This document shows positions 3,390-27,030 of a DNA stretch of 32,000 nucleotides, one piece after another. Location: contig JAMXCW010000002.1 of the NCBI GenBank assembly GCA_024451685.1, forward strand, positions 75,042 through 107,041. Reading direction: 5' to 3'. A program made the translations under genes and the position numbers. Each line of letters begins with the position of its first letter. The first letter of the stretch is position 1. Below the pieces are notes generated by a model, which was given only the letters and a program-made list of their open reading frames with translations, had not been told where the DNA came from and did not search any database. This stretch comes from Candidatus Bathyanammoxibius amoris (GTDB lineage Bacteria; Planctomycetota; Brocadiia; Brocadiales; Bathyanammoxibiaceae).

Positions 3390-3662
3390 TTGAACGTAGA
3401 AGAGATTGAAAAGGAAGTGACGTCCATTGTTGCGGAAGTAACGGAGCTAGAGAGGGACGAGATTTGGAACAAGAGAGACGCCAATTTCTTTAAGGAACTA
3501 GAGATAGACTCCCTTTTAGCCCTGGAGATATTAGCGCTTATTGAAAAGAAGTTCAAGATTCAAATACCAGAAGAAAAGTTGGTAGATATAACATCTTTGA
3601 CCGCTACCATTAACATGACCAAAGATGTGCTGGCCGAGAGCGGAAGGCTGCAGGAAGCTTAG
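3390..3662 (+). CDS. acyl carrier protein, dedicated (amxACP-like)
   Basis: 90 aa. Phosphopantetheine attachment motif LEIDSLLALEI. TTG start with AAGGAGGGGA 4-13 nt upstream. An FF dipeptide (ANFFKELEIDSL) sits where E. coli AcpP has FV. Confidence 0.9.
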   Translation: MNVEEIEKEVTSIVAEVTELERDEIWNKRDANFFKELEIDSLLALEILALIEKKFKIQIPEEKLVDITSLTATINMTKDVLAESGRLQEA

Positions 3663-3697: not shown

Positions 3698-4153
3698 ATG
3701 GATTTCGAGGAGGTAAAGAAGCTCGTCCCGCAAAGGTATCCCTTCCTATTCATAGATAAAGTTGTTGAATTAGAGGAGGGGAAGAGAATCGTCTGCCTCA
3801 AAAATGTTTCTGCGAACGAACCTTTCTTCGTCGGACACTTTCCGGAATACGCCATAATGCCCGGCGTCCTTACCTTGGAAGCCCTGGCCCAGGCATCCAT
3901 AATACTCTTCAAAAAAAGCTTCAAGCAGGACGACAGCCCGGACGCGGTCTTCCTGCTGGCCTCCGCAAAAGTAACCTTTGTAAAGCCTGTCTTCCCCGGG
4001 GATCAACTATACCTGGAGATAGACATAGAAAAGGTTATCTCTAATGCCGCCATTGTGAGTGGCATCGCAAGGGTCGGGGAAAACACAGTCGCCAAGACCA
4101 CTTTGACCTTCGCGACGGCCGATAAAACTTCACTTGGTAAAGGTCGGGAGTAG
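3698..4153 (+). CDS. fabZ: 3-hydroxyacyl-ACP dehydratase
   Basis: The hot-dog dehydratase signature [14 protein letters not shown]...[26 protein letters not shown] carries the catalytic His (GHFP) and Glu (LEALAQ). The track ORF begins at TTG 3674, but ATG 3698 gives the canonical N-terminus [16 protein letters not shown]. Confidence 0.9.
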
Positions 4154-4154
4154 C

Positions 4155-5378
4155 ATGAACACGCGTATAGTTATCACCGGTATAGGTGCGATAACTCCTA
4201 TCGGTTCAACCAAGGATGGCGCGTTTTGGGATGCGGTAGTTTCGGGCAAATCCGGTGTTAGCGATGTTACGTGCTTTGACACGTCCCAGCATAAGGTCCA
4301 CAAGGGCTGTGAGGTGAAGGACTTTGACTATCACGACTATACGGATAACGGCTCGGTCGGGAAAACAGGGAGGGGGTCTCAGCTTGCAGTGGCAGCCACC
4401 AAGCTGGCGCTTGAGGATTCAGGACTGAAACTGGACGAGGTAGACCCCGAGAGGATAGGTGTCTCTGTCGGGACGACCGGCGGTGAGATACAAATACTCG
4501 AAAGAATAGACCACCTCAGACACGAAAAGGAAGAGAGCCAGATAGACAGGCAGCTCTTTCTGCTGCACCCGTGCAATAATATACCCGCCAACATAGCCCG
4601 GGCATTCGGGTTTAAAGGCCCCAACACCATAATACCTACCGCATGCGCGGCGGGCAATTATGCAATCGGTTATGCCTGTGACCTCATAAAGATGGGGAGG
4701 GTGGATTTTATGTTTGCTGGCGGTTCCGACCCGTTTTCAAAGGTCGCTTTTACGGGTTTCAGCCGCCTGGCCGCGGTGGCACCGGACGTATGTCGTCCCT
4801 TCGACAAGAACCGCAAAGGGATGTTGATTGGAGAGGGCGCGGGTATGCTGCTGCTGGAGTCGCTCGACGGTGCGCGGGCAAGGGGGGCCGACATTTATGC
4901 GGAGATTATAGGCTACGGTCTGAGTTGCGATGGCTACCACATCACCATTCCCCATCCTGAGGGCCTCGGCGTAATCTCTTGCGTTAAAAAGGCCCTTCAA
5001 GACGCACGGATTAACCCTGAGGACGTGCAGTACATAAGCGCCCACGGCACGGGTACTGTCGCAAACGATAAAGCTGAAACCATTTCCATAAAAAAGGTCT
5101 TCGGTGAACATGCCGGGAACCTCATGGTGAGTTCTATAAAATCCATGATGGGTCACACTATGGGCGCCGCAAGTGCAATAGAGACGATTGCTTGTGCGCT
5201 GATAGTCAAAGAGGATAAAGTCCCGCCAACCATAAACTACGAGACGAAGGACCCTGAATGCGACCTGGACTATGTACCCAACGTTTCAAGAGAGCGCCGC
5301 GTAGACATCGCCCTTAATACCGCGTACGCCTTTGGTGGTAATAACAGTTGCCTGGTGGTCAAGAAGTTTCTTAATTAA
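4155..5378 (+). CDS. beta-ketoacyl-ACP synthase, FabF-like, catalytic triad intact
   Basis: The Cys-His-His triad is present: [48 protein letters not shown] 4155 lies 1 nt after the fabZ stop. The track start at 4134 (TTG) overlaps fabZ. Confidence 0.9.
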
Positions 5379-5459: not shown

Positions 5460-6689
5460 ATGGAAGAAAGAGTAGTAGTTACAGGTATAAGCATTATAAG
5501 CCCGCTCGGCGTGGGCAAGGACAGCTTCTGGGAAAACCTGCAGAACGGTGTCTCCGGCATAAGACCCGTAACCCTTTTTGAAGTGGACGGGTGCAGTTCC
5601 AAGAATGCCGGCGAAATACCGGACTTCGACCCCAGCAAGTTCCTGGGCAAGAAGGGTATCCGGCACTTTGACAGGACGTCGCTGCTGGTAACCGCAGCCT
5701 CAAGTCTCTGCGTCGAGGATGCCGCCGTCAAAGGCGTATATGAAGAGGACGACATGGGCATCGTCCTCGGTTCGACCTTTGGAAGTATCGACAGCATAAG
5801 CAATTTTGACATGGACTCTCTTAACGAGGGGCCTAATTACGTCAACCCGATGGCCTTCCCCAACACGGTCTTAAACGCTCCCGCCAGCCGTGCCTCAATA
5901 TTCTGTCAGGCCAAGGGGCTTAATTCCACCATATCCACGGGTGAATCCAGCGGCGTGGACGCTATTATGTGCGCATCCGACTTCCTCAGGCTCGGCAGGG
6001 TAAAGGCCGTGCTGACTGGCGGTGCGCACGGACTTACGCGGGAAATATTCCACTCTTCCAGCAAGGCCGGTGTGCTGTCGGGGAGCAAGAATACCGGCGG
6101 CAATGAGATTTGTGCTCCTTTCGATAAGAGACGCAACGGCATAGTTTTGGGCGAGGGTGTGGCCATGCTGCTGCTTGAATGTCTGGAGAATGCGCAGGCA
6201 AGAAATGCGAAGATATACGCCGAGATTAAGGGCTATGGCACCAGCTTTAACCCCGGCTGGGACAATAGCGGAGACATGGGCGGCGGTATGAGGGCCAATT
6301 CCCTGGCGCTCGCCAGCGCCGGACTCAAGCCGGAAGATATTTGCCTGATATACGCCAACGCCAATTCAAGCGTAAACGGTGACCGGATGGAGACCGTCGT
6401 TATAAAGGAATCCTTCGGCGACCTCGCAAAGAATATACCCGTAAGCGCGATAAAGTCCATGACCGGAGATTGCCTGGATGCATCAGGGGCGATGCAATGC
6501 GTGGCGTCCGTCATGTCAATCAACACGGGAATTATCCCTCCTACAATCAATTACAAAGAGTCAGACCCCGGCTGCGACCTGGACTACGTGCCAAACAAAA
6601 AGAGGCAGGCACAGATAGACAACGTGCTCGTGGAATCGTTCTCCTATACGGGCAACTGCTCTGCCCTGGTAATGTCCAAATACTCCTAG
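5460..6689 (+). CDS. KS-like protein lacking the whole catalytic triad (chain-length-factor-like partner)
   Basis: Full-length thiolase/KS fold (VVVTGISIISPLG...). Hand alignment to the upstream KS and to E. coli FabF motifs gives Cys->Glu (STISTGESSGVDAI), His->Asn (IYANANSSVNGD) and His->Asp (SAIKSMTGDCLDASGA). Confidence 0.85.
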   Translation: MEERVVVTGISIISPLGVGKDSFWENLQNGVSGIRPVTLFEVDGCSSKNAGEIPDFDPSKFLGKKGIRHFDRTSLLVTAASSLCVEDAAVKGVYEEDDMGIVLGSTFGSIDSISNFDMDSLNEGPNYVNPMAFPNTVLNAPASRASIFCQAKGLNSTISTGESSGVDAIMCASDFLRLGRVKAVLTGGAHGLTREIFHSSSKAGVLSGSKNTGGNEICAPFDKRRNGIVLGEGVAMLLLECLENAQARNAKIYAEIKGYGTSFNPGWDNSGDMGGGMRANSLALASAGLKPEDICLIYANANSSVNGDRMETVVIKESFGDLAKNIPVSAIKSMTGDCLDASGAMQCVASVMSINTGIIPPTINYKESDPGCDLDYVPNKKRQAQIDNVLVESFSYTGNCSALVMSKYS

Positions 6690-6691
6690 AA

Positions 6692-8122
6692 ATGGCGGAC
6701 AACGGCCTTTCTATAAAAAAGAGTGAACTCCGGAGTAAATACGACGTTATCGTAATCGGTGCGGGTATCGGGGGGCTCGTCGCGGGCGCCTTCCTCGCCA
6801 AAAGCGGAAAGAACACACTGGTAGTAGAACAGCACAACATCCCCGGCGGCTACTGCACGTCGTTTAAACGGGGCGGGTTCATCTTTGATTCCGCCGTTCA
6901 CCACATCGGGGGTTGCAGTAAGTACAGTATAGTGGGCAGGTGCCTGAAGGAATTAGGGATAGATATGGAATTCTACAGGCTCGACCCCATGGACACCCTC
7001 ACCTTCCCCTCGTTCTCCATAGACATACCGGCGGACATCGAGACCTACAAGTCCTCCCTGCAACAGAGATACCCGGCCGAGAAGGAAAACGTGTCCAGGT
7101 TCTTCAGTGAATTCATAAAACTCTACCGGGCGATAATAAACGAATCTGAGAAGAGCCCGACACTCGAAAAGTACAGGGGGCGTACTTATCAGGCCATGCT
7201 GGACGACTTCTTCGATGACACGGAGCTGAAGACCGCGCTGGCGGGGCAGTGGGGGTATCTTGGCACGCCCGCGCGCGAGCTTTCAAGCGTCGGCATGTGC
7301 CAGATGCTGGTAAACTATCTCAGAGACGGCGCCTTCTATCCCAAGGGCGGCACTCAAAACTTTGCAGACGCCTTCGCACGATGCATAAGAGACTCAGGCG
7401 GAGACCTGCTCCTGTCTTCAAAGGTGGAAGAGATACTACTCAAGGGCAACCGTGTGGCCGGGGTAAAGCTGGACGGGGGTGACAGGGAGATTGGGGCGGA
7501 GCATATCGTCTCAAATATTGACGCGGGACAGACGTTTTTTGAACTGATAAAGGAAGAGGTTGACCCCGTCTATCTTGAAAGAATGAGAGGGATGAGAGAA
7601 AGCCCTTCATATTTCCTCCTGTATCTCGGCCTTGACCCTGAGGTTGACCTGAGTAGATTCAAAAGAGGCTTTTATCACAGCCCTGACGACCAGTGGAAGT
7701 ATATATCGGCCCCGACAAACGTGGACAAATCCCTGGCCACAAAACTCCGGCAGGAGATAACCGTAGTAGCCACGCTGGATGAAAAGTACGACCAGATTGA
7801 GGACTGGAAGGGCTTGAAAGATAGGTTGACCAGGTGTACAATAAGTTACCTTGAAGATCTTGTGCCAAACCTTAACAGGCACATCGAGGTAGTGGAGGCG
7901 GCCACACCAAAGACCCTCTGGCGGTACACGCTCAACTCAAAGGGGGCCGCGTACGGGTGGGCCGTCACGCTTGAGCAGTCCGGACCGGACAGGCTTGGCA
8001 ATAAAACACCGGTAGGGGGTTTATATCTGGCCGGACATTGGACAAACCCGGGACCAGGCGTCTGCGCCGTTGTGTCCTCGGGTTGGCGCGTGGCAAACAT
8101 GATATTGAGAAACGGGAGATAA
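6692..8122 (+). CDS. FAD-dependent desaturase/oxidoreductase, phytoene desaturase (CrtI)/amine-oxidase family
   Basis: N-terminal dinucleotide fold YDVIVIGAGIGGLVAGAFLAKSGKNTLVVEQHNIPGGY. CrtI-like C-terminus GGLYLAGHWTNPGPGVCAVVSSG. ATG 6692 lies 2 nt after the preceding stop. The track start at 6470 overlaps the KS-like gene and is rejected. Confidence 0.8.
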   Translation: MADNGLSIKKSELRSKYDVIVIGAGIGGLVAGAFLAKSGKNTLVVEQHNIPGGYCTSFKRGGFIFDSAVHHIGGCSKYSIVGRCLKELGIDMEFYRLDPMDTLTFPSFSIDIPADIETYKSSLQQRYPAEKENVSRFFSEFIKLYRAIINESEKSPTLEKYRGRTYQAMLDDFFDDTELKTALAGQWGYLGTPARELSSVGMCQMLVNYLRDGAFYPKGGTQNFADAFARCIRDSGGDLLLSSKVEEILLKGNRVAGVKLDGGDREIGAEHIVSNIDAGQTFFELIKEEVDPVYLERMRGMRESPSYFLLYLGLDPEVDLSRFKRGFYHSPDDQWKYISAPTNVDKSLATKLRQEITVVATLDEKYDQIEDWKGLKDRLTRCTISYLEDLVPNLNRHIEVVEAATPKTLWRYTLNSKGAAYGWAVTLEQSGPDRLGNKTPVGGLYLAGHWTNPGPGVCAVVSSGWRVANMILRNGR

Positions 8123-8127
8123 AGGTT

Positions 8128-9573
8128 ATGAAGAAGATAATGCTGGTAAACCCTCATCCTCCAGGCCGTCACGGTGAGGAGAGCATAAGCGTGATAGTCC
8201 AGATGCCCCTGAATCTGGCCTACATCGCCGCCCTCACGCCGGGCGACGATTGGGAGTTCGATGTAGTTGACGAAAACCTCGAGCTTGCAATGGATGAGAA
8301 TGGAGAGGACATAACCTTTGACCCGCCGGATATAGTCGCGCTTACCGCGCTCACCTATCAGGCTCCCAGGGCATACCAGATAGCCCGGGCCGCCAAGAAA
8401 CACGGCTGTACCACAATAATGGGCGGCATCCACGCCTCCGTGTGTGCGGAAGAGACCCTGCAGTACGTGGACACGGTCGTAACCGGAGAGGCGGAGAACG
8501 TCTGGCCGCAGGTGATAAAGGACTTTGAGAACGGAAAGTTGCAGAGACGCTACGACGGCGGACTCCCCAACCTCTCAGTACTCAAAAATATATATCCCGA
8601 TAGAGAACTTCTGAAGAAAAAGTACGGCTACAAGTTCTCTTCTATAATAACTACTAAAGGCTGTCCCAACCGCTGCGATTTCTGCAGCGTGCCCACCTTC
8701 CAGGGCCAGAAGTTCCGGGAGAGACCGTACGAAGACGTGCTCGACGAGATGGCGGCTACGGACTATAAGGGGCTGATGTTTGCTGAGGACAACTTCTACG
8801 GCCACAGCGACGCCTCCGCGCGGCGCGCCAAACACCTCTTCCAGGGCATGATTGACAGGGGCCTGAAGAAGGACTGGCTCGGCTTTACCGCCCTCAACAT
8901 CTCTCATGACGCCGAGGCCCTCGACCTGATGGCAAAGTCCGGCAACTTCGGTTTTCTCGTCGGCATAGAAAGCACCAACGAAGAGGTGTTGAAGAAAATG
9001 GGTAAGCGGGTGAATTTGAGACTTGGGACCACTAATTATAAAGAATGTATAAGGAAGATACATGATGCGGGTCTCCTCGTCTGGGCCTCGGTGGTATTCG
9101 GCGCCGACGGCGATGGCAAGGATTCGTTCAAGAAGATGGTGGATTTCGTACACGACAGCAAGGTGGACATACTGACCTACGGCCTTGACTGCCCGTTCCC
9201 CAAGACGCCGCTCTTCTACAGGCTCGATTCAGAGAAACGGCTCTTCCGGAGAAATCTGCCGGAGGACTGGGTATATTACGAGACCGCCCATATGGTCCAC
9301 AGGTTCGTTGACATGACCCTGGACGATTTCGTGGACGGCATGCAGTACGTCTACGACCACGTATACGCGGGTGACAACGTCCGCAAGAGGTTCAGGACAA
9401 CCATACAGGAGACCGGCAACCCCCGCAACTCCATGTTCGCCCTCAGGGTGGGTCAGGACTGGGACCAAGTCTTTTTGCAGGTTTTGGACAACCTGCACGA
9501 ACTCCAGGAATCCGGCGATTATTATAAAGACACCTACACCACGCAGGAAAAGACCATCTCCATCCCCGCGTAG
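8128..9573 (+). CDS. B12-binding-domain radical SAM enzyme (paralog 1)
   Basis: Radical SAM cluster motif TTKGCPNRCDFCSVP (CxxxCxxC). N-terminal Rossmann-like B12-binding-type domain (IMLVNPHP...DIVALTALTYQAPRAYQIARAAKKHGCTTIMGGIHAS). ATG 8128 with GGGAGA 9 nt upstream, 5 nt after the desaturase stop. Confidence 0.85.
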   Translation: MKKIMLVNPHPPGRHGEESISVIVQMPLNLAYIAALTPGDDWEFDVVDENLELAMDENGEDITFDPPDIVALTALTYQAPRAYQIARAAKKHGCTTIMGGIHASVCAEETLQYVDTVVTGEAENVWPQVIKDFENGKLQRRYDGGLPNLSVLKNIYPDRELLKKKYGYKFSSIITTKGCPNRCDFCSVPTFQGQKFRERPYEDVLDEMAATDYKGLMFAEDNFYGHSDASARRAKHLFQGMIDRGLKKDWLGFTALNISHDAEALDLMAKSGNFGFLVGIESTNEEVLKKMGKRVNLRLGTTNYKECIRKIHDAGLLVWASVVFGADGDGKDSFKKMVDFVHDSKVDILTYGLDCPFPKTPLFYRLDSEKRLFRRNLPEDWVYYETAHMVHRFVDMTLDDFVDGMQYVYDHVYAGDNVRKRFRTTIQETGNPRNSMFALRVGQDWDQVFLQVLDNLHELQESGDYYKDTYTTQEKTISIPA

Positions 9574-9607
9574 TATCGCTGCATATTATCAGACCAACAA
9601 ATAATGT

Positions 9608-9639
9608 AGGGGCACGGCAATGCCGCGCCCCTTTGTTTT
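9608..9639 (+). terminator. rho-independent terminator of locus A
   Basis: AGGGGCACGGC-AAT-GCCGCGCCCCT forms a stem of 6+4 bp with one internal mismatch. It is followed by TTTGTTTT and lies 35 nt after the radical SAM stop. Confidence 0.7.
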
Positions 9640-9663
9640 ATCTATTCCTCAACAATTATGCGT

Positions 9664-10051: not shown

Positions 10052-10054
10052 AAA

Positions 10055-10768
10055 CTATTTGGGCAGGGGAGCGCCGCACCAGGCGCAGAATGTCCACGTG
10101 GCGGAGACCTCCTCCCCACACTTCGCACATGGAGGGGCATTCACCATCGCGTCGAACGGGGTGTGCCACGTGAAGACCGCCTTCTCGTACGGGCCGTCGG
10201 CATTAAGCACCAGGGTCAGCTTGGATTTCTTGTGTGTGTCAATTACAGGCTCGCCCTTTTTATCCTTGTTCGGGAATATCAGGACGTGCATGTTGGCGCC
10301 GCCGGCGTCGCCCTCCGAGGCCAGTATAGTCTTCATTGCCGCAACGGTCGCCGCAACCATGGGGGGCGGGTCGTCTACGGGCCGGATTTTAGAGCCGTCC
10401 GGCGCCAGCAGCACCGCTCTTTTCCGGACTTCGCTTTCACCCGCATACATAGAGGAGCCGTCGGGCTGCATGATGCTGCTCTGGATGACCATGGTGATGT
10501 ACGGCTTAAGGAACCCCATGTCCTGTTCTATGACGTCCCTTGGCTGACGGGTATCGGTAAGACTTGCCTCCACGTAGAAATCGAACGGCATCCACATGGC
10601 AAGCTGTGTAACGTCACCCAGTATCTCTACTTTCAGTATCTCGGTAACAAAGCTGCCGAGGTCGGCATTTGGCTTCGCGCCGGCTCCCTGCTGGGCAGCC
10701 AGGGTCTGGGGGAACGCGGCGACACAGAACAGAACCGCGGCCATAAAAAGAATCCTTGGGGTCTTCAC
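10055..10768 (-). CDS. exported hypothetical protein with C-terminal CxxC...CxxC zinc-ribbon-like tail
   Basis: 237 aa. Signal peptide MKTPRILFMAAVLFCVAAFPQTLAAQQ. GTG start with AAGGAGAG 5 nt upstream. C-terminus CAKCGEEVSATWTFCAWCG. No family recognised. Confidence 0.6.
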   Translation of the reverse strand: MKTPRILFMAAVLFCVAAFPQTLAAQQGAGAKPNADLGSFVTEILKVEILGDVTQLAMWMPFDFYVEASLTDTRQPRDVIEQDMGFLKPYITMVIQSSIMQPDGSSMYAGESEVRKRAVLLAPDGSKIRPVDDPPPMVAATVAAMKTILASEGDAGGANMHVLIFPNKDKKGEPVIDTHKKSKLTLVLNADGPYEKAVFTWHTPFDAMVNAPPCAKCGEEVSATWTFCAWCGAPLPK

Positions 10769-10829
10769 GGTGCTCTCCTTTCAAAAACGTATTACCTTCA
10801 TGTCTGCCAGCGCGGCCGGACGGTGAAGG

Positions 10830-11174
10830 TTATTCTCCCGTTGGGAATATCATCGTATCGAGGTCTTTTACCAGTTGATACATCCTGCGGGCGTCTTGCA
10901 GGGCCTGTTCCTGGTTTACAAGCGGTATTATCTCTATCTTTGTAAACAGGGGGAACAGCGGCAGCTTTGTCACAATCGCCTCTATCTCCGCGTGGTCGTC
11001 CGCGTCAAAGATGGCCGCCGCGCCGCGGCGCCCGGCCAGTTTGCCGCCTGCCAGGACTTTCCCCCTCTTCTTCATCCTCTCGTAGAACTCCCATTCCTTT
11101 ATCAAGAGTTGAAAGAAATCCCTGACCGGCATCTGGTTAATCTTTTCTATCTCTACCTTTACTAGAAATAGCAT
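10830..11174 (-). CDS. muconolactone delta-isomerase-fold (MIase family) protein
   Basis: 114 aa. MLFLVKVEIE...IFDADDHAEIEAIVTKLPLFPLFTKIEIIPL parallels CatC-type muconolactone isomerases as I remember them (MLFxVxM...N..YSIFDV.S.EELH.LL..LPLFPYM.IEV.PL). GAGGTG RBS 7 nt upstream. Confidence 0.6.
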   Translation of the reverse strand: MLFLVKVEIEKINQMPVRDFFQLLIKEWEFYERMKKRGKVLAGGKLAGRRGAAAIFDADDHAEIEAIVTKLPLFPLFTKIEIIPLVNQEQALQDARRMYQLVKDLDTMIFPTGE

Positions 11175-11300
11175 GGGAGTTCACCTCGCATTTAATGGAC
11201 GTTGTAGAGACAGAACCCGCCGCCCGCCACAAATATGGCGTATTTAGAACCTGCGTCGAGGACTGTCCCTTCGCATTATCCGGCATCGGCCCCGACAGTG

Positions 11301-12044
11301 TTACATGGCCATGCCGCCGTCTACGGTAATTACTTGACCCGTGATATAACTGGCCTCGTCCGAGGCCAGGAAAGCCACCACGCGGGCCACCTCTTCGGTC
11401 TCGCCGACGCGGCCCAGAGGCACCAGCTTCAACATCTCGTCCAGGTATTTCTGCTCTATCGCTTTAACCATATCCGTCTTAATGAAACCCGGCGCCACCG
11501 CGTTTACCCGCACCCCGCGCCTTGCCACCTCCTTGGCCAGGGCCTTGGTAAAACCAACTATCCCGGCCTTTGAGGAGGAATAGTTGGTCTGTCCCGCCAT
11601 GCCGACAAGCCCGCTGACGGAGCTTATGTTTATTATCGAGCCGCTCCGCTGCTTCATCATGGGCAACACGGCGGCCTTGGTGCAGTTGAACACGCCGTTC
11701 AGGTTGGTATCTATCACGGCCCTCCAGTCCTCTTCCGACATCATCATCAATATCTTGTCCCTGGTTATACCGGCGTTGTTTACCAGGATGTCTACCTTTC
11801 CGAGTTCCTTTATGGCATTGCTAATCATCTCTTTTGACCGGGCAAAGTCCGCGACGTCGCTCTGCACGGAAAACGCCTTTACGCCCAGCTTGCTTATCTC
11901 GCCCTCAAGCTCCTTCGCCTTCTCCACGTTCTTCGCGTAGCTGAAGGCCACGTCCGCGCCGTTTCCGGCAAGCTCAAGGGCTATCGCCCTCCCGATACCC
12001 CTGGTACCACCCGTGACAATAGCCGTCTTCCCTTTTAATGACAT
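11301..12044 (-). CDS. fabG: 3-oxoacyl-ACP reductase
   Basis: 247 aa classical SDR. TGGTRGIGRAIA, NNAGI, the Ser...YSSSK catalytic motif and the C-terminal ITGQVITVDGGMAM typical of FabG. Confidence 0.9.
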   Translation of the reverse strand: MSLKGKTAIVTGGTRGIGRAIALELAGNGADVAFSYAKNVEKAKELEGEISKLGVKAFSVQSDVADFARSKEMISNAIKELGKVDILVNNAGITRDKILMMMSEEDWRAVIDTNLNGVFNCTKAAVLPMMKQRSGSIINISSVSGLVGMAGQTNYSSSKAGIVGFTKALAKEVARRGVRVNAVAPGFIKTDMVKAIEQKYLDEMLKLVPLGRVGETEEVARVVAFLASDEASYITGQVITVDGGMAM

Positions 12045-12080
12045 GTTACCTTCTCCACGTTTTATAATGAAACAAGCGAC

Positions 12081-12121
12081 AATCCGCTTCCCGCGGATTC
12101 ATTGGGGCAAAAATTTTGCCC
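12081..12121 (-). other. two adjacent stem-loops in the FadH-like/fabG spacer
   Basis: AATCCGC-TTCCC-GCGGATT (12081-12099) and GGGCAAAA-A-TTTTGCCC (12105-12121). On the minus strand the second is followed by a moderately T-rich stretch. Function unknown. Confidence 0.35.
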
Positions 12122-12128
12122 TGGCAAA

Positions 12129-14135
12129 TTATACAGTAAGTCCTATCTTAAAGCCTTCATGGATCGCCTCCATCGCGGTCCTTACCTGCACGCAGTCGCC
12201 GATAGTATATATCTCAGGCACGAGACCGTTAAGGTGTTTATGGAGCGAGTCGTCGGATATGTACCCGGTAGCAATTATCACCGTTTCCGCGGGTATAAAA
12301 GTCTCCCGGCCGTCCTTTTCATACAACACGCCGCTCTCTGGCTCCTCTTTGACTTCCTTTACCTTTACGGTCGTGACGGCCTTTATGCCTGCGCCCTCCA
12401 TCTCCCTTTCCATCACCCAGCGTGTGGATATCCCGAAACCGCCGGCGACTCTCCTCTTCATCTCGAGAATGGTGACGTTCCTGTGGCCCCTTGAGGATTT
12501 TTCCAATGCGGTCGGCAGGTCTATTATATCATTCTTTAGCAAGAACATCGCCACATCCGGTTTCATACTGCCCAGCTTGGCCACGTAGAGGGCCGTCTCA
12601 CTGCCTACCGTCCCGCCGCCTATTATAACAACCTCACGGCCAACCGGCACCCTCCCGTCCAGTACGTCCTTCGCCAGCACGATGTTATTCCCGTTTATCC
12701 CCGGAATCGGCGGGATGGACGGCGTTGAACCAGTTGACAGTATCAGCACGTTCGGTTTTTCCTTCTTGATTATATCCGGGTTTGCCTCAACGCCCAGGAC
12801 GACCTTCACCTTTTCCTTCTTTATCTGTCTTTCCAGATATTTTATAACGTTTACAAACTCCTCGCGGCCAGGGGGCTTGTAGGCATAGTGCAACTGACCC
12901 CCAAGGATTTTTTCTTTCTCATACAGTGTTACGTCATGGCCTCTCAGCGCGGCCACCCGGGCCGCCTCCATTCCTCCGGGACCGCCCCCTACAACAAGGA
13001 TCTTCCTCTTCTTTGCCGCCGGTGTTATGGTATATTCTTTTTCCCTCCCTGCCCTGGGATTGTACAGGCAGGTGACGGCCCTCATGTTCAAGAGTTCATC
13101 AAAGCAGCCCTGGTTGCATGCTATACACGTCCTTATGTCCTCAAGCCTGCCTTCCTTATATTTATTGGGCAGCTCTGGGTCCGCTATGAGCGGTCTGCCG
13201 ATGGATACCAGGTCTGTCTGCCCGTCCCTGAGCAGCTCTTCCGCAACGGTAAGGTCATTTATCCTGACAGCCGCTATTACGGGTATGTCCACGTTTTCTT
13301 TGATGGAGGTTGCCAGAACCACGTAAGCGGTTCTGGGGATTACCATCAGCATTACGGGTACCTTGCTTTCGTGCCACCCCGGCGACACGTGGAAGGCGTC
13401 CACGCCGAGTCCGGCAAGTCTCTGGGCGATTTGTATATTGTCCTTAATCTTCAGACCGCCCTCCATCAGCTCATCCCCGGAGAGTCTAAAGATTACGGGA
13501 AAATCCTCCCCAGCGGTCTCTTTGACGGCCTCTATGGTTTCAACGGCAAAGCGCAGCCTTTTCTCCGGGCTGCCGCCGTACTCGTCGTTTCTTTTATTGC
13601 TTATTGGTGAGAGGAACTGGTTGATGAGGTATCCCATGCCGCCGTGAATCTCTACGGCATCGAAGCCCGCGTCTTTGGCCCTTTTTGCGGCCAGGGCGTA
13701 GTTTTGTATTACCTGTTTTATCTCCGGGATGCTTAAGGCCCTGGACGTGTCTCTGGCCAGTCGTGAGGGCACGCTCGATGCCGATACGGGCTGCATCTTT
13801 GAGAACAGGCTTGAGGCATAACGCCCGCCATGGAGTATCTGGGCAGCGGCCTTTGTGCCGTGACGGTGCATAGCCCCGGTGAATCTGGCGAGTGAGGGGA
13901 TGTAGCGGTCGTCGTCCAGCCCGAGGATGCTCTTCCACGCCTTGCCGTTCTGTTCCGGATAGCACCCGCCGACAACGATGAGCCCCACACCTCCGTCGGC
14001 CCTCTCCGTATAGAAATCAACAAAACGGTCATTGACAAAGCCGCCGGTAGTGAAGCCAAGGTCCATTGCCGTCATCACGAGACGGTTTTCCAGCTGCAAC
14101 GGGCCTATATTTATTGTGTTAAACAGGCTGACCAT
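12129..14135 (-). CDS. FadH-type 2,4-dienoyl-thioester reductase-like flavoprotein (OYE FMN barrel + 4Fe-4S + FAD/NAD(P)H domains)
   Basis: 668 aa. N-terminal OYE-like barrel (GFDAVEIHGGMGYLINQFLSP). Cys motif CIACNQGCFDELLNMRAVTC (Cx2Cx3Cx11C, as in E. coli FadH). C-terminal Rossmann folds ILVVGGGPGGMEAA and VVIIGGGTVGSETA. Confidence 0.85.
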   Translation of the reverse strand: MVSLFNTINIGPLQLENRLVMTAMDLGFTTGGFVNDRFVDFYTERADGGVGLIVVGGCYPEQNGKAWKSILGLDDDRYIPSLARFTGAMHRHGTKAAAQILHGGRYASSLFSKMQPVSASSVPSRLARDTSRALSIPEIKQVIQNYALAAKRAKDAGFDAVEIHGGMGYLINQFLSPISNKRNDEYGGSPEKRLRFAVETIEAVKETAGEDFPVIFRLSGDELMEGGLKIKDNIQIAQRLAGLGVDAFHVSPGWHESKVPVMLMVIPRTAYVVLATSIKENVDIPVIAAVRINDLTVAEELLRDGQTDLVSIGRPLIADPELPNKYKEGRLEDIRTCIACNQGCFDELLNMRAVTCLYNPRAGREKEYTITPAAKKRKILVVGGGPGGMEAARVAALRGHDVTLYEKEKILGGQLHYAYKPPGREEFVNVIKYLERQIKKEKVKVVLGVEANPDIIKKEKPNVLILSTGSTPSIPPIPGINGNNIVLAKDVLDGRVPVGREVVIIGGGTVGSETALYVAKLGSMKPDVAMFLLKNDIIDLPTALEKSSRGHRNVTILEMKRRVAGGFGISTRWVMEREMEGAGIKAVTTVKVKEVKEEPESGVLYEKDGRETFIPAETVIIATGYISDDSLHKHLNGLVPEIYTIGDCVQVRTAMEAIHEGFKIGLTV

Positions 14136-14152
14136 GTCTCAAGTGTGGAGCA

Positions 14153-14185
14153 CAAAAAATAAAGAAGCAGGGCAAAAGGCCCTGC
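14153..14185 (-). terminator. rho-independent terminator inside locus B (between the KS-like partner and the FadH-like gene)
   Basis: On the minus strand, GCAGGGC-CTTTT-GCCCTGC (perfect 7-bp stem) is followed by TTCTTTATTTTTTG. It starts 30 nt after the stop at 14216 and ends 17 nt before the ATG at 14135. Confidence 0.55.
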
Positions 14186-14215
14186 CGCGCGATATTATAA
14201 CCATTGAAAATGAAA

Positions 14216-15457
14216 TTACATATCACTTTTTTCCACTACGAGGCTGGTGCAGTTTCCATTCAGGTCGAGAGAGTTGACTATTGCCACCTTTATGTCCTGT
14301 TTAAGCTCGTCCCCCAGTACGAAATTCAGCTCGCACTCAGGGTCCGGCACCTTGTAGTTCCTCATCGGAGGGATGGTCGATTTTTCCATGGCCAGCAGGC
14401 AAAAGGCCATTTGCATCGCCCCTGATGCGCCGTAACACTCACCGGTCTGAGACTTTATAGAACTTACCGGTACGTCTCTCAAGCCGTCTCCCAGCAGCGC
14501 TTTAACGGCCCTGGCCTCTATGAGGTCCGTCTGCTTTGAAGAATTACCGTTTGCGCAGATAAGCCCCAAGGAATCCTTTGATTGTCCGGCCTGTTCAAGA
14601 GCCTGCTCCATGGTATTTTTCACTCTCTCTGTCTTTTCTTCCAGGCTGAACCTCCTGGCTCCCATGTAAGCTAGTCCGTGACCGGTGAGCTCCGCATATA
14701 CGCGGGCTCCCCGCCTGCGTGCATATTCCATGTCCTCTATGACAAACACGTAACTGCCCTCACCGAGGATGAAGCCGTTCCTGCGCTTATCAAACGGGGC
14801 GCTTATCTCTGGTTCAGAGTCCTGCGAACCAGCCAGAAGTTTTTGCATAAGAAAGATGATGTAACTGTCGAGCGAGATTTGTTCCACCCCGCCGGCAATG
14901 AGCACATCCACCCTGTTTGTCTGTATCAAGCTAAAGGCGTCGCCGATAGCGTCGGCGCTGGACGTGAATCCTGAGGTAATTGTCCTTGAAGGACCGGTGA
15001 GTTTAAAAAATACTGAAGCAAAGTTTGTAGAGGAATTCAGTGCCACGTCATAGCTGTCCATGGGAAGGAGCTTTTCAGGCCCGCGTTTAAGGATCTCATA
15101 CGTATAATCCGTTGTCTGTGGGTAATTGCCGAGGGCTGAACCTATTACAACGCCCGTGTCATCAGGACAGTGATTGCCGTTCTGGAAGAGTTTAGCGTCT
15201 TCGAGGGCAAGTTTCGTTGCAGACGCAAGAAATTTGGTACCCTTTGTCAGATATTTAAGGCCCTTGTCACCGAGATATTCAGAGGGATTCAGGCCCTTTA
15301 CTTCCGCAGCCAGTTTACAAGGATACCCGGAGACGTCAAGGGACGTGATCGGGGCGATACCGGAATGGCCTCCGGCAAGATTCTTCCAGAATTCCTCATG
15401 CCCAAACCCCAGCGGAGAGATTATACCGATGCCAGTTATTACGGTCCTTTTCTTCAT
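14216..15457 (-). CDS. KS-like protein lacking the whole catalytic triad (second chain-length-factor-like partner)
   Basis: 413 aa KS fold. Cys->Phe (RTITSGFTSSADAIG), His->Asn (ICANGNSSKQTD), His->Glu (SSIKSQTGECYGASGA). Its ATG overlaps the upstream KS stop (ATGA at 15454-15457). Confidence 0.85.
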   Translation of the reverse strand: MKKRTVITGIGIISPLGFGHEEFWKNLAGGHSGIAPITSLDVSGYPCKLAAEVKGLNPSEYLGDKGLKYLTKGTKFLASATKLALEDAKLFQNGNHCPDDTGVVIGSALGNYPQTTDYTYEILKRGPEKLLPMDSYDVALNSSTNFASVFFKLTGPSRTITSGFTSSADAIGDAFSLIQTNRVDVLIAGGVEQISLDSYIIFLMQKLLAGSQDSEPEISAPFDKRRNGFILGEGSYVFVIEDMEYARRRGARVYAELTGHGLAYMGARRFSLEEKTERVKNTMEQALEQAGQSKDSLGLICANGNSSKQTDLIEARAVKALLGDGLRDVPVSSIKSQTGECYGASGAMQMAFCLLAMEKSTIPPMRNYKVPDPECELNFVLGDELKQDIKVAIVNSLDLNGNCTSLVVEKSDM

Positions 15458-16659
15458 ACCCTACCAAAAACAACGCTGGCATTATTACCGCCAAAGGCAA
15501 ACGAGTTATTCAAGGCGAATCTAACCTCTTTGTTTCTTGCCTCATTAGGCACGCAATCCAGGTCGCATTCCGGGTCCTTTGTCTCGTAGTTTATCGTCGG
15601 GGGGAGTTCTCCAAACTTTATGGCCAGGCAGCACACGGCAGACTCAATGGCGCTTGCCGCTCCCATGGTGTGGCCGATCATTGACTTTACCGAGCTGCAT
15701 GGAATCTGCGGGGTTCTCTCTTTAAAGACCGTCTTGACTGCAAGGGTTTCCATTTTGTCATTCAGCGGCGTGCCTGTGCCGTGCGCGCTTATATAATCTA
15801 CGTCCTCATACGAAAGCTTGGCGCATCCCAGTGCCGCCTCCATTGCCCTGATAGCGCCTTCCCCTTTAGGATGGGGAGCGGTCATGTGAAAACCGTCGCT
15901 GCTGAGACCGTAGCCCTTTACTTCAGCATATGTGTTCGCGCCGCGTTTTGTTGCATGCTCCAGAGTCTCAAGTATCAGCATCCCCGCGCCGGCCCCCACG
16001 ACCAGACCCTGTCTGTTTTTATCAAACGGCTGGCATTTCTCCGGCGCCAGGGCCTTCAGGTTGTGGAAGTGCGTAAATTCAGTTTGCGGTACTATGTCGC
16101 TTCCGCCGACTACCATTGCGTTAACCTTTCCTTCCTGCAGCATGTCAAAGGCCCAGCACAGGGCATGGTTTCCGGAGGAGCAGGCGTTAATCAGAATGAT
16201 ATTGGGACCTTCTACGTGAAAATCTTCTGCCAGCTGAGTCGATAAGGTCGCCGGGGGATAACGCAGGACCACGTCCAGACTAAACCCGGAGGCCTTGTCA
16301 CGGGGGTTGTCCCTTAGCTTATGCTCAAAGGCGGAGAGTTCTCCGGCAAGCGTTCCTATGGACATACCGACTTTATCTATTTCCAGGCCCTTGTAGTCAA
16401 ATATGCCGCTATCTTGAAGCGCCTCCCTGGTAGCTACGTAAAGACAATCGTAAACAGTATATCCGTTCTTGGATGGTGGGGTACCGTTGGAGTTCAGACT
16501 TTTTAACTCACAGGCACGGTGAACCTTGTATCTGGAGGTGTCAAAGGTGGTAATTTCCGAGACACCATCCCGGCCATTAAGCATTGCTTCCCAGGATTTT
16601 TTTCTGTCCGAACCAATGGCCGTTACCAAGCCGAGGCCTGTCACAACTACTCTGGGCAT
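15454..16659 (-). CDS. beta-ketoacyl-ACP synthase, FabF-like, catalytic triad intact (second copy)
   Basis: 401 aa. IILINACSSGNHAL (Cys), [15 protein letters not shown] (His), [16 protein letters not shown] (His). Starts 16 nt after the radical SAM stop. Confidence 0.9.
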   Translation of the reverse strand: MPRVVVTGLGLVTAIGSDRKKSWEAMLNGRDGVSEITTFDTSRYKVHRACELKSLNSNGTPPSKNGYTVYDCLYVATREALQDSGIFDYKGLEIDKVGMSIGTLAGELSAFEHKLRDNPRDKASGFSLDVVLRYPPATLSTQLAEDFHVEGPNIILINACSSGNHALCWAFDMLQEGKVNAMVVGGSDIVPQTEFTHFHNLKALAPEKCQPFDKNRQGLVVGAGAGMLILETLEHATKRGANTYAEVKGYGLSSDGFHMTAPHPKGEGAIRAMEAALGCAKLSYEDVDYISAHGTGTPLNDKMETLAVKTVFKERTPQIPCSSVKSMIGHTMGAASAIESAVCCLAIKFGELPPTINYETKDPECDLDCVPNEARNKEVRFALNNSFAFGGNNASVVFGRV

Positions 16660-16675
16660 GATATGGATATCTCTT

Positions 16676-18157
16676 CTAAAAGACCTTCGTGGTTATCAGG
16701 CTGGAGGATTCGTTAAATCTTTCCTTCTTCCCTATCCGGCCCAGGGCCTCCTGGTACTTCCCGGAGGCCTCCAATTTTTGCAGGTTTTCTATGAAATGTG
16801 CGATGACTTCCCGCCAGTCCCAGTTGACCTTGAGGGCAAACATGGCGGAGTTGTTATTGTTCAAGGCCTGCCTCGAGTTTTGGAATCTCGCCCTGATGGA
16901 CTCGGTGGACCATAGCCGCTGCTGCAGGCGCTGTAACCCCTCGGTAAGCTCCTGAATGGAGAGATTGTTAAGGATGTGGACAAGGTGGTGAGACGTGTAA
17001 TATACCCAATCCTCGGGGAAGTTCGTACGGAAAAGCCTGTTACCACCCTCCAGACGTTTGTAAAGGGGGGTATTGATAAACGGGCAAAGTATGCCGCATG
17101 TCATTATGTCAAGGTTGGAACCCAGCACAAATTCCGATACCTCGTCAAAGGTGTCTATAGTGTCGGCATCATTGCCAAATATCACGGTACCCCAGACGGC
17201 TATGCCGTGTTTGCGAATGTTCTTAATGGCTTCATAATATTTATCTATGGTTATCCTCAGGTTGACGTGTTTGTTCATCGATTCCAGGGCTTCTTTATTC
17301 AGTGACTCTATCCCTATTAGCACCCCCACACAACCACTCCTGACCATGTAATCCAGGGTCTCGTCGTCCCTGAATATATTAAGTGACGTAAAACCGAACC
17401 AGTTCTGGTAGATGCCCCTTTCCACCATCTCTTTAAAGAGATTCCTGACCCTGTCGTTTGATTTTTTACTATGGCCGTAAAAATTCTCGTCGGTGAGCAC
17501 CAGCCCCCGGAACTGGCCCTGAATAGCCTCCATCTCGTCAAGCACGTCCTCTACGGGCCTCTCACGGTATTTGCGGCCCTGGGATTGAGGGACGGAGCAA
17601 AACTCACAACTGAAGGGGCACCCGGCAGATGTGGTTATTCCGGAGTAACGGTATTTATATTTCTTCTTCAGAAATTCCCTGTCGGGGTAAACTAACTTCA
17701 GATTTTCCAGCGGTGTAAGGCCGCCTTCGTAAAATTTCTGAAGACGTCCCTGTTCAAAATCCGACAGCAGCTTGTCCCAGATGGAAACGGCCTCTCTCTG
17801 TACGACACAATCTACGTGCTCGGCCACCTCATTGGGATAAATAGTCGCATGCACACCGCCCATTATTACCGGGATTTCCCTCTTCCGGCAGGCAGCGGCG
17901 ATCTGATAGGCACGCGGGGCCTGATAACTGACGGACGTTATCCCCACCAGATCCGCTCCCGGGAAACACAGGTTGCCGTTTTCGTCTACGGCGCTCTCCT
18001 CGGTTTCGTCTATTACGTCAACCTCCCAGCTATCCGGGGTCAGAGATACCAGGTAGCCCAGGTTTACAGGCATCTGGGCCAACACAGAGACGTTCTCCTC
18101 ACCGACGTTTCCTATCGGATGGGGATTTATAAGCACAAGTTTTCTTTTGCTTATCAT
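16676..18157 (-). CDS. B12-binding-domain radical SAM enzyme (paralog 2)
   Basis: 493 aa, colinear with the 8128-9573 product. Shared blocks include NPHP, YQAPRAYQIA, IMGG(I/V)HA, YPDRE(L/F)LKKKY and the CxxxCxxC motif TTSAGCPFSCEFCSVP. I estimate roughly half the residues are identical, by eye. Confidence 0.85.
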   Translation of the reverse strand: MISKRKLVLINPHPIGNVGEENVSVLAQMPVNLGYLVSLTPDSWEVDVIDETEESAVDENGNLCFPGADLVGITSVSYQAPRAYQIAAACRKREIPVIMGGVHATIYPNEVAEHVDCVVQREAVSIWDKLLSDFEQGRLQKFYEGGLTPLENLKLVYPDREFLKKKYKYRYSGITTSAGCPFSCEFCSVPQSQGRKYRERPVEDVLDEMEAIQGQFRGLVLTDENFYGHSKKSNDRVRNLFKEMVERGIYQNWFGFTSLNIFRDDETLDYMVRSGCVGVLIGIESLNKEALESMNKHVNLRITIDKYYEAIKNIRKHGIAVWGTVIFGNDADTIDTFDEVSEFVLGSNLDIMTCGILCPFINTPLYKRLEGGNRLFRTNFPEDWVYYTSHHLVHILNNLSIQELTEGLQRLQQRLWSTESIRARFQNSRQALNNNNSAMFALKVNWDWREVIAHFIENLQKLEASGKYQEALGRIGKKERFNESSSLITTKVF

Positions 18158-18249
18158 TATGTTTCTTTTTCCCGGTATTCTCTTACGTATAAACTCTACG
18201 CTGGATTGTGCCCTCTGGTAAGAACCTTACACACCGGGTGACACTCCCA

Positions 18250-18615
18250 TCAATACGCGCCAGTCACCAATAATACCTGCCCTATGGCGTGGTCTTTTGT
18301 GTGGGTTATTGATACGTCCCATGAGCCGACACCCTTTTCCTCGGCGAGTTCCTTCGCCCTCCCATAAAGTTTAAGGTAAGGACGTCCCGAGGAATCATTG
18401 AGCAACTCAATATCTGTCCACTTCATCCCCGTACCCAGGGCCTTTACCACCGCCTCTTTTACGGCAAACCTGGCGGCCAGGTGTTCAAACTTATTCCTCT
18501 TAGAGAGGCTGTACTCTACCTCCCTGGGGGTGTATATGCGGTCAATAAAGGATTCGTAACGGGTAAAAAGGTCTTTAATTCTTCCAACTTCCACCAGGTC
18601 GATGCCTATGTACAC
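18250..18615 (-). CDS. acpS: holo-ACP synthase (4'-phosphopantetheinyl transferase)
   Basis: 121 aa. IGIDLVEVGRI, RFAVKEAVVKALG and WDVSITHTKDHA are typical AcpS blocks. GTG start with GGGGAG 8 nt upstream. Confidence 0.9.
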   Translation of the reverse strand: MYIGIDLVEVGRIKDLFTRYESFIDRIYTPREVEYSLSKRNKFEHLAARFAVKEAVVKALGTGMKWTDIELLNDSSGRPYLKLYGRAKELAEEKGVGSWDVSITHTKDHAIGQVLLVTGAY

Positions 18616-18665: not shown

Positions 18666-18694
18666 ATTCTATCTATTGTAGTAACAGTTGTCAA
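18666..18694 (-). promoter_or_regulatory. putative sigma70 promoter for locus B (acpS operon)
   Basis: On the minus strand: TTGACA (18694-18689), a 17-nt spacer, then TAGAAT (18671-18666). About 50 nt upstream of the acpS start. Confidence 0.5.
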
Positions 18695-18739: not shown

Positions 18740-18767
18740 TTGACAGCACAAAGGGATAGCATATAAT
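18740..18767 (+). promoter_or_regulatory. consensus sigma70 promoter for the MATE gene
   Basis: TTGACA (18740-18745), a 16-nt spacer, then TATAAT (18762-18767). The MATE ATG lies only 11 nt after the -10 element and has no Shine-Dalgarno. Confidence 0.55.
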
Positions 18768-18778: not shown

Positions 18779-20128
18779 ATGCATATCCTGGAACCCACAG
18801 AAAAAAACCTCAATAAAAACATAGCCCGCCTGGCCATTCCCGCTGCTGCCGAGAACATACTGCACCTGATGGTATTCATTGTGGATATCATCATGGTCGG
18901 CAGGCTGGGGACAGAGGCAATTGCCGCAGTGGGGATGGCGGGGGCGCTGAGTTTTGTACTGACCATGGTGTTTGCCTCAAGTTCTGCCGGCACGGTAAGC
19001 CTTGTGGCCAGATACTCCGGGGCCAAGGACAAGCCTACCGCAGAGCGAGTGGCGACCCAGTCATTGTTATTGGGACTAGTCTTAGGCCTCCTGGCCTTCC
19101 CCCTGCTCTATTTCTCCGCCGTAAACATTCTCTACATGATGAGCGCAGAACCGGATGTGGCCTTGCTTGGCGCCCTCTACTTCAAGATAGTCATATGTTT
19201 TCTCCCCTTCAGACTCATAATGCTGGCCGGTCATGCCGCCTTTAGGGGCGCGGGAGACACGCGAACGCCCATGCTGATTACGCTGGTGATGAACTGTCTG
19301 AACATCCTATTTAACTGGCTGCTCATATTCGGCATATGGATATTCCCCAGGTTGGAGGTGGCAGGCGCCGCCTGGGGCACCGCCATTTCTTATGTAGCAG
19401 GTGCCATTATGGTCGCGGTCATCATCTCCGGCGGCAGGGGGCTGATTACGGTAAAACTGCGCAATGTCCTTTCTCCAGACCCGGACATCATAAAGAGAAT
19501 AGTCAGGATATCGACGCCCGCGGCCATTGATGCCTTTCTTACCCAGGTGGGCTACCTGGTCTTTTTAAAGATAGTGGCTACGTTGGGCACAACGTCCCTG
19601 GCGGCGCATCAGATAGCCATCAGGATAGAGGCCTTCTCGTTTATGCCCGGTTACGCGCTGGCCGTTTCTACGGCCACGCTGGTCGGGCACAGTCTGGGGG
19701 CCAAAAACGAAGACCTCGCCCGGCTGAGCATGAGGCGGAGCTGCATCTACGCCCTCATAGTGATGTGCTCGTTCGGCGTCTTGTTCCTGCTCATTCCGGA
19801 ACCCCTGGCACGCATATTTTCACCTGAACCGAGCGTGTTACAGCTGACCGTAATCTGTGTTATGATTGCGGCGATAGAGCAGCCGGCGCTCGCCATCTAC
19901 ATGGTATACGCCGGCGGGCTGAGGGGAGCGGGAGATACGATGAGCCCGATGTTGATCACCATTATCGGGACGCTATTCATCCACGTGCCCACAGCGTATC
20001 TCTTCGGGATAGTCCTTGGCTGGGGACTGCCGGGCATATGGTTCGGGGCGGCGCTTGACTGGATACTACGCGCCATAGCGGTTTGCATACTCTACCGCCG
20101 GGGAAGGTGGAAGCGGGTAAAGGTTTGA
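18779..20128 (+). CDS. MATE family efflux transporter
   Basis: 449 aa with about 12 hydrophobic helices. N-terminal IARLAIPAAAENILHLMVFIVDIIMVGRLG and repeated RGAGDT motifs (FRGAGDTRTPM, LRGAGDTMSPM) are typical of MatE repeats. Confidence 0.85.
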   Translation: MHILEPTEKNLNKNIARLAIPAAAENILHLMVFIVDIIMVGRLGTEAIAAVGMAGALSFVLTMVFASSSAGTVSLVARYSGAKDKPTAERVATQSLLLGLVLGLLAFPLLYFSAVNILYMMSAEPDVALLGALYFKIVICFLPFRLIMLAGHAAFRGAGDTRTPMLITLVMNCLNILFNWLLIFGIWIFPRLEVAGAAWGTAISYVAGAIMVAVIISGGRGLITVKLRNVLSPDPDIIKRIVRISTPAAIDAFLTQVGYLVFLKIVATLGTTSLAAHQIAIRIEAFSFMPGYALAVSTATLVGHSLGAKNEDLARLSMRRSCIYALIVMCSFGVLFLLIPEPLARIFSPEPSVLQLTVICVMIAAIEQPALAIYMVYAGGLRGAGDTMSPMLITIIGTLFIHVPTAYLFGIVLGWGLPGIWFGAALDWILRAIAVCILYRRGRWKRVKV

Positions 20129-24086: not shown

Positions 24087-24105
24087 TACAGGGAGGTGTG
24101 TCGTT

Positions 24106-25062: not shown

Positions 25063-25074
25063 GGGGTGCATCTA

Positions 25075-27004: not shown

Positions 27005-27030
27005 ATGTTTACGAAAGAGTACGGACAGAT

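Follow-up and report, generated by a model that had tools for sequence, protein, structure and literature searches.

What does an anammox-type planctomycete do with a second pair of ketosynthase-like proteins, one intact and one without catalytic residues, when a comparable pair lies only a few genes away? The question is raised by a window of 32,000 nucleotides from Candidatus Bathyanammoxibius amoris (the whole stretch of DNA analysed here; NCBI GenBank assembly GCA_024451685.1, contig JAMXCW010000002.1, positions 75,042 to 107,041 of the forward strand). The window holds two fatty-acid-type loci, locus A on the plus strand and locus B on the minus strand. We call the active ketosynthase (KS) and the dead partner of locus B KS_B and CLF_B (CLF for chain-length factor), their locus A counterparts KS_A and CLF_A, and the two couples pair B and pair A. 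Locus A is 'Cluster I' (kuste3603-3608), whose heterodimer amxFabF2/amxFabFmut is the reference for what follows. With moderate confidence, and by analogy with that heterodimer, we read KS_B and CLF_B as a paralogous, obligate 1:1 heterodimeric condensing enzyme that would accept longer or bulkier chains on acyl carrier protein (ACP) than pair A does. The features at the centre of this reading are:

16659..15454, minus strand: KS_B, active FabF-like ketosynthase, 401 amino acids (aa), PF00109 and PF02801; counterpart of kuste2804
15457..14216, minus strand: CLF_B, catalytically dead partner, 413 aa, PF00109 and PF02801; counterpart of kuste2805
15454..15457, minus strand: ATGA start/stop overlap between KS_B and CLF_B (TCAT on the plus strand)

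Both Pfam domains match KS_B and CLF_B over their full length (E-values 1e-23 to 1e-37). With catalytic positions numbered as in E. coli FabF (MAFFT table), KS_B keeps Cys163, His303, Thr305, Thr307, Asp311, Lys335, His340, Glu349 and Phe400. CLF_B lacks the triad and the gate residue Phe400, has Gln349, and retains Lys335 and Asp311. When CLF_B is aligned to B. subtilis FabF (4ls5) with HMMER, its Phe164 falls at the catalytic Cys, and Asn303 and Glu340 take the places of the first and second His, in agreement with the MAFFT table. The motifs given in the earlier note on this DNA (NACSSG, SAHGTGT and IGHTMG in KS_B; TSGFTSS, CANGNSS and QTGECYG in CLF_B) and its assignment of Phe, Asn and Glu to the triad positions are thus confirmed, on the minus strand, which that note had left unstated. 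Compared with the canonical FabF homodimers of E. coli and B. subtilis, the fold is the same and KS_B keeps the catalytic residues, whereas CLF_B has lost triad and gate, and both proteins score under the TIGR03150 fabF equivalog cutoff of 493.75 bits (KS_B 400.8, CLF_B 320.3).

With all three triad residues gone, CLF_B could be a decaying, pseudogene-like duplicate, or its Phe an assembly error. Its open reading frame is, however, full-length, and the Phe/Asn/Glu combination recurs in 119 of 121 CLF_B homologs (52-98% identity) drawn from many independent assemblies, which excludes the sequencing or assembly artefact that the earlier note had asked to have checked. Across four members of the clade to which the window belongs, the ratio of nonsynonymous to synonymous substitution rates (dN/dS) is 0.07-0.13 for CLF_B and no different for KS_B (0.085-0.115), values that denote purifying selection. 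The AlphaFold2 (AF2) model of CLF_B is confident (mean predicted local distance difference test, pLDDT, 86.7; predicted template modelling score, pTM, 0.89) and superposes on B. subtilis FabF with a template modelling (TM) score of 0.90. FabFs are the top matches in a structural search, which serves as fold confirmation only since the fold library is older than the heterodimer structure 9s5h. Because Phe/Asn/Glu is conserved in 119/121 homologs and dN/dS is about 0.1, CLF_B is functional rather than decaying; on this conservation and its predicted fold, it is a maintained, folded, non-catalytic protein. We regard decay or error as already refuted, with practically no probability left to it.

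The closest characterised relatives of both proteins are the two subunits of pair A, which in the window are:

4134..5378, plus strand: KS_A, amxFabF2 type (locus A), likely ATG at 4155; groups with B. fulgida amxFabF2 in our trees (all neighbour-joining on Kimura distances)
5460..6689, plus strand: CLF_A, amxFabFmut type (locus A), Glu162/Asn300/Asp337 at the triad positions; 81-nt gap after KS_A, no overlap

The triad residues of CLF_A are those that had been stated earlier. In a May 2026 preprint, the Cluster I FabF pair is reported to co-purify and to be active only together, to decarboxylate malonyl-amxACP and form acetoacetyl-ACP, and to be a KS/chain-length-factor-like heterodimer (PDB 9s5h, 9s5i; bioRxiv 10.64898/2026.05.19.726425). 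KS_B has amxFabF2 as its best PDB match (9s5h_B, 408 bits, with FabFs at about 300), and CLF_B has amxFabFmut (9s5h_C, 307 bits), followed by FabF 4ls5 (247 bits) and the actinorhodin CLF 1tqy_B (135 bits). Pair B thus shares with amxFabF2/amxFabFmut the combination of an active KS and a FabF-derived dead partner, and CLF_B shares with the amxFabFmut partners Asn303, Gln349 and Lys335 as well as membership of a single all-inactive clade. The pairs differ at the Cys position of the partner (Phe in B; Val, Thr or Glu in A, the preprint reporting Val or Thr for Cluster I, bioRxiv 10.64898/2026.05.19.726425), in their interface helix motifs, and in the flavoenzyme encoded nearby, which is dienoyl-reductase-like in B and desaturase-like in A. 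The interface helix of KS_B, QTEFTHFHNLK, is invariant across 8 of 8 orthologs whose overall identity is only 61-83%.

We compared the window with the related loci L001-L008 and L011-L014. A genome-collection scan with a single protein yielded only 5 close loci, and the remoter ones were reached through exact-protein look-ups. A KS_B-type ketosynthase with Cys-His-His lies directly upstream of the B-type partner in 12/12 loci that were examined for this linkage. The 4-nt ATGA overlap at 15454-15457 is real, as the earlier note had described it, yet it is no general feature of such pairs: it is found in the window and in L001, L002, L003 and L005 (5/5 of the window's clade), whereas the junction is TAGATG with zero gap in Scalindua japonica and the gap is 2, 23, 27 or 167 nt in other lineages. 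KS and partner are tightly linked in general, but the overlap is particular to one clade. When 1.84 billion cluster representatives were searched exhaustively, dead partners derived from FabF proved to form a large superfamily, in many members of which Phe stands in for the Cys and Glu for the second His. Among proteins P0243-P0362 are many natural fusions of about 800 aa in which a Cys-His-His KS makes up the N-terminal part and a dead KS the C-terminal part, matching the order of the two genes here, which gives independent support for physical association within the superfamily. One such fusion (L012) is situated in a type II polyketide synthase (PKS)-like cluster with two ACPs, a cyclase, a ketoreductase and an acyltransferase.

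We infer a heterodimer because of the homology to 9s5h, the gene linkage and the fusions taken together. Since KS_B keeps all of its catalytic residues, it could instead act alone as an ordinary FabF-type homodimer and leave CLF_B a non-condensing role, for example as an acyl-ACP binder or as a scaffold for the neighbouring radical S-adenosylmethionine (SAM) enzyme. Such a role would suit the retention in CLF_B of Lys335, Asp311 and a conserved pocket (119/121), more uniform than that of the A partner, and the preprint describes a homodimeric crystal form of S. brodae amxFabFmut (bioRxiv 10.64898/2026.05.19.726425). Each subunit of pair A is nevertheless inactive singly, the partner is always immediately downstream of the KS (12/12 loci), and fused KS-partner proteins exist. 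The structural model points the same way: residues 110-139 of CLF_B, a helix-loop-helix, form the only low-confidence stretch of the AF2 model and are predicted to be unstructured in the protein by itself. They overlap the motif (residues 110-130) that gave no density in the amxFabFmut-only crystal and was resolved in the heterodimer (bioRxiv 10.64898/2026.05.19.726425). We therefore consider a KS_B working alone distinctly unlikely, and a pair B heterodimer remains the reading that we favour.

The arrangement also recalls type II PKSs. In the actinorhodin KS-alpha/KS-beta pair (1TQY), an active KS is encoded next to an inactive homolog, sometimes with start/stop overlap, and the partner shapes the tunnel; type II CLFs carry a conserved Gln where a KS has its active-site Cys. 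The same logic of active KS and adjacent inactive homolog applies to pair B, to 1TQY and to the highly reducing type II system of ishigamide (Iga11/Iga12, 6KXD). If the likeness went further, CLF_B might be a priming decarboxylase like the Gln-bearing CLF/KSQ proteins, and pair A does decarboxylate malonyl-ACP to start chains. CLF_B, however, has Phe rather than Gln at the Cys position and neither His, its score against the actinorhodin CLF is far under its score against FabF (135 and 247 bits), and the activity of pair A is ascribed to the intact subunit. A priming role is very improbable on these grounds, and CLF_B is, as judged by its residues and scores, a FabF-derived analogue outside the type II CLF family.

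If pair B is a heterodimer, the residues that line its tunnel bear on what it accepts. Mutagenesis reported in the preprint indicates that Phe135 and Val139 of the pair A partner affect chain preference, with C6-C8 favoured (bioRxiv 10.64898/2026.05.19.726425). The equivalent positions are Phe/Val in 121/121 A-type partners versus Ser/Ala in 121/121 B-type partners, within the motifs PMDFPNTVLN (A) and PMxSYDVALN (B; PMDSYDVALN in CLF_B of the window). The nearest outgroup families of CLF_B also have small residues there, Ser/Ala or Gly/Ala. These substitutions are compatible with a pair B tunnel of greater width or length, and because every B-type partner has Ser/Ala at the equivalents of Phe135/Val139, longer or bulkier acyl-ACPs are the predicted substrates. 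In mechanistic terms, KS_B would carry out the chemistry (acyl transfer to Cys, malonyl-ACP decarboxylation and Claisen condensation), and the non-catalytic CLF_B would complete the dimer, its helix-loop-helix forming a wall of the acyl tunnel. Phe135 and Val139 narrow the tunnel of pair A near C8, and Ser/Ala would let pair B handle longer or bulkier intermediates. The two partners are probably non-redundant, with plausibly different substrate windows.

How old is the second pair? KS_A and KS_B are 47% identical, CLF_A and CLF_B 37%, and KS versus partner 30-35%. With each family conserved separately across Brocadiia, these values agree with the earlier proposal that the pairs are old paralogs rather than a recent duplication; the pairs are old, distinct lineages. 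The argument first offered for that age, namely the different residues at the triad positions, is unsound because A-partner orthologs vary there: among 121 homologs the triad is T/C/E in 49, V/C/E in 35, E/N/D in 15, V/N/E in 12 and E/N/E in 10. CLF_A of the window is E/N/D, with Glu at the Cys position, and the B partner is nearly invariant. The claim that the two pairs diverged independently fails as well. In a tree of 197 sequences, the smallest clade that contains both partners comprises 63 proteins, 0 of them with Cys-His-His (bootstrap 1.0), the clade of KS_A and KS_B is Cys-His-His throughout (support 0.95), and CLF_A and CLF_B have Asn303, Gln349, Lys335 and Asp311 in common. The all-inactive clade and the common residues argue that inactivation is older than the split of the partners, which by this evidence descend from one already inactive ancestor and not from independent losses. 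A duplication of the pair inside the anammox lineage was also considered: in a 32-sequence tree with only FabF/FabB outgroups, CLF_A and CLF_B were exclusive sisters (bootstrap 1.0), a result that appeared in 0/100 replicates once 150 library representatives had been added to give the 197 sequences, and the claim was dropped.

The gene pair itself is not new. Locus B is, judged by its residues and gene order, the Bathyanammoxibius version of the anammox cluster kuste2802-2805, and pair B is the known ladderane-candidate pair kuste2804/2805, an identity missing from the earlier note. Two more genes of locus B enter the comparison:

16676..18157, minus strand: rSAM_B, B12-binding radical SAM enzyme, PF02310 and PF04055, 16 nt upstream of KS_B; counterpart of kuste2803
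18250..18615, minus strand: AcpS, holo-ACP synthase, first gene of locus B, PF01648 (E = 4.8e-19); counterpart of kuste2802

The cluster was tabulated in 2009 as AcpS, B12 radical SAM, FabF and 'non-canonical FabB', and Table 2 of that paper gives Kuste2805 as Phe163/Asn298/Asn300/Lys328/Glu333/Gln342 (Rattray 2009, PMC2649909). At these positions CLF_B has F/N/N/K/E/Q. The match to Kuenenia was made through the published residues and synteny rather than by direct alignment, Kuenenia sequences being absent among the 120 listed CLF_B hits. The order AcpS, B12 radical SAM, FabF, non-canonical KS is found in the window and, with AcpS in the same place, in L002, L004, L006, L007 and L008. Shared with kuste2802-2805 are this gene order, Phe/Asn/Glu at Cys/His/His, Gln at Glu342/349 and the conserved Lys. 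Unlike it, the window and most of the other loci read continue with a FadH-like reductase, a FabG and an isomerase-fold gene, and in the window's clade the cluster stands tail to tail with Cluster I. The preprint makes no mention of kuste2804/2805 (bioRxiv 10.64898/2026.05.19.726425).

Whether such a heterodimer serves ladderane synthesis is a separate question, and we infer both that link and the difference in substrate window. The pair might belong to a non-ladderane lipid or polyketide pathway, its co-location with locus A reflecting a general toolkit for unusual fatty acids. Related modules of radical SAM, KS and partner occur in loci with GC contents of 37%, 56% and 58%, one of which, L014, adds an aminotransferase and an AMP-ligase. 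Moreover, the clusters are syntenic with those of Deltaproteobacteria that make no ladderanes, according to the 2009 study (Rattray 2009, PMC2649909), and no experiment ties these genes to ladderanes (bioRxiv 10.64898/2026.05.19.726425). Taxonomy and neighbourhood pull the other way. The nearest genomes to CLF_B are metagenome-assembled genomes of Brocadiales or Planctomycetota (77-84% identity), and homologs of at least 52% identity (52-98%), except for one that comes from a 1.7-kb contig, are labelled Brocadiales, Scalindua, Hypogeohydataceae or Planctomycetota. Modules A and B are also adjacent in two independent arrangements: as convergent neighbours about 1.3 kb apart in the window, likewise convergent in L002, and as A-type and B-type modules within one co-directional operon in L013. 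In Scalindua and Hypogeohydataceae the two loci are far apart. We regard a pathway outside ladderane synthesis as unlikely, if less so than the alternatives weighed above.

The remaining genes of the two loci, and the regulatory features of locus B, are as follows:

10830..11174, minus strand: muconolactone-isomerase-fold protein, last conserved gene of locus B, PF02426 (E = 5.5e-14)
11301..12044, minus strand: FabG-type 3-oxoacyl-ACP reductase, TIGR01830, 335 bits (above the cutoff of 297.75)
12129..14135, minus strand: OYE/FadH-like flavin reductase (2,4-dienoyl-reductase type), 668 aa, PF00724 and PF07992
14166..14186, minus strand: GC-rich, terminator-like hairpin with T-run, in the 80-nt gap between CLF_B and the FadH-like gene
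18666..18694, minus strand: sigma-70-like promoter match upstream of AcpS, TTGACA-17-TAGAAT, 11/12 (consensus match only)
3390..3662, plus strand: amxACP-type acyl carrier protein (locus A), PF00550
3674..4153, plus strand: amxFabZ-type dehydratase (locus A), PF07977; NF000582 147.5 bits, passing the cutoff of 113
6692..8122, plus strand: CrtI/phytoene-desaturase-like flavoenzyme (locus A), PF01593; TIGR02734 158 bits, under the cutoff
8128..9573, plus strand: rSAM_A, B12-binding radical SAM enzyme (locus A), from its domain match and 48% identity to rSAM_B

Pair B would act on the same amxACP-type carrier as pair A, alongside rSAM_B, the FadH-like reductase, FabG and the small isomerase-fold protein. 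A phmmer search over all reading frames of the window found no second ACP besides 3390-3662, and in L014 a B-type pair has an amxACP-like (51% identity) and an amxFabZ-like gene (43% identity) as immediate neighbours. The idea of two chain-length windows on the same ACP, put forward in the earlier note, accordingly gains sequence support for its first half, from Ser/Ala versus Phe/Val, and is plausible in its second. In L014 (GC 58%) positions 3840-13796 form one run of rSAM, amxACP-like, FabZ-like, rSAM, B-type KS and partner, enoyl-CoA hydratase, aminotransferase and AMP-ligase genes, which may represent a related pathway to a different product.

The FadH-like gene comes next after the partner in all 6 loci with enough sequence (L002, L004, L006, L007, L008 and L011), and the PF02426 gene, conserved across Brocadiia, also follows FabG in L006, L007 and L008; we found no mention of this isomerase-fold protein in the available text of the ladderane papers. 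The hairpin at 14166..14186 is kept in L001, L002 and L005, one of its base pairs having changed by compensation in L002, and could be a terminator or attenuator that sets the AcpS-rSAM-KS-partner genes apart as their own transcript. rSAM_A and rSAM_B are 48% identical over their full length, which equals the divergence of the KSs; because the radical SAM paralogs have diverged as far as the two KSs, radical SAM, KS and partner look like a module in two forms. L013 has three B12 radical SAM genes in a row.

Other observations concern the surroundings. The amxFabZ-type protein scores 149.7 bits against TIGR01750 fabZ, slightly under the cutoff of 155.15. NCBIfam matches to cispentacin AmcF/AmcE and rSAM_ladder_B12 were all under their cutoffs and were not used for assignment. 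A second sigma-70-type match (18740-18767, plus strand, 12/12) diverges from that at 18666-18694 on the minus strand, both being located in the interval that separates AcpS from a MATE efflux gene (18779-20128). Between loci A and B, 10055-10768 (minus strand) encodes a protein of 237 aa whose N-terminus resembles a signal peptide and which has a zinc ribbon at its C-terminus. A hemL-like gene at 1798-3114 was recognised from its translation only. The flanks (21596-31458) carry ordinary housekeeping genes; the MATE transporter and a pentapeptide-repeat protein were assigned by Pfam, and argB-, Mla-type ABC/MCE-, argD-, argF-, rph-, rdgB- and lepA-like genes from translations only. Nothing among the flanking genes points to a mobile element.

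Several points weigh against a long-chain, ladderane-related heterodimer. The ladderane link of all these genes is circumstantial. Expression of kuste2802-2805 in E. coli was reported to give no new fatty acid, with the proteins largely insoluble (Javidpour 2016, PMC4790861), and in vitro even pair A gave only decarboxylation and acetoacetyl-ACP in the experiments of the preprint (bioRxiv 10.64898/2026.05.19.726425). In CLF_B the residue next after the tunnel Ser is a Tyr (PMDSYDVALN), which could partly refill the space, so that a roomier tunnel is unproven. AcpS, the sole such gene in Kuenenia, may be a housekeeping enzyme and is no proof of a dedicated link to amxACP. Finally, the charge asymmetry reported for the pair A interface, which disfavours homodimers, did not emerge when net charge was summed over residues 110-140 and 196-206: the sums separate no subunits, even in the solved B. 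fulgida pair, and are an uninformative proxy.

A more far-reaching scheme can be drawn from the same arrangement, tentatively and as something we think unlikely to hold in full. The three-gene module of B12 radical SAM, KS and dead partner, in its two forms, might act in succession on one amxACP-bound chain: module A, with a desaturase-like flavoenzyme and a narrow tunnel, on early short-chain intermediates, and module B, with a dienoyl-reductase-like enzyme and a small-residue tunnel, on long or cyclised ones. The stretch of about 15 kb from 3390 to 18615 would then come close to the smallest set of genes needed to make a ladderane-type chain.

The synthesis of ladderane lipids is a long-standing open problem, and the sole biochemical foothold on its condensing step is the 2026 result on the Cluster I FabF pair (heterodimer, C6-C8). 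Were pair B no more than a second elongase of the ordinary kind, the advance would be modest, the pair and its odd active site having been known since 2009. Pair B is open to the experiments already applied to pair A, including co-expression, acyl-ACP crosslinking probes and tunnel swaps, and the compactness of the loci here points to a delimited group of genes with which to attempt reconstitution. Being no less conserved than pair A, and having other tunnel residues and a radical SAM paralog of its own, pair B is a concrete candidate for the steps outside the reach of pair A.

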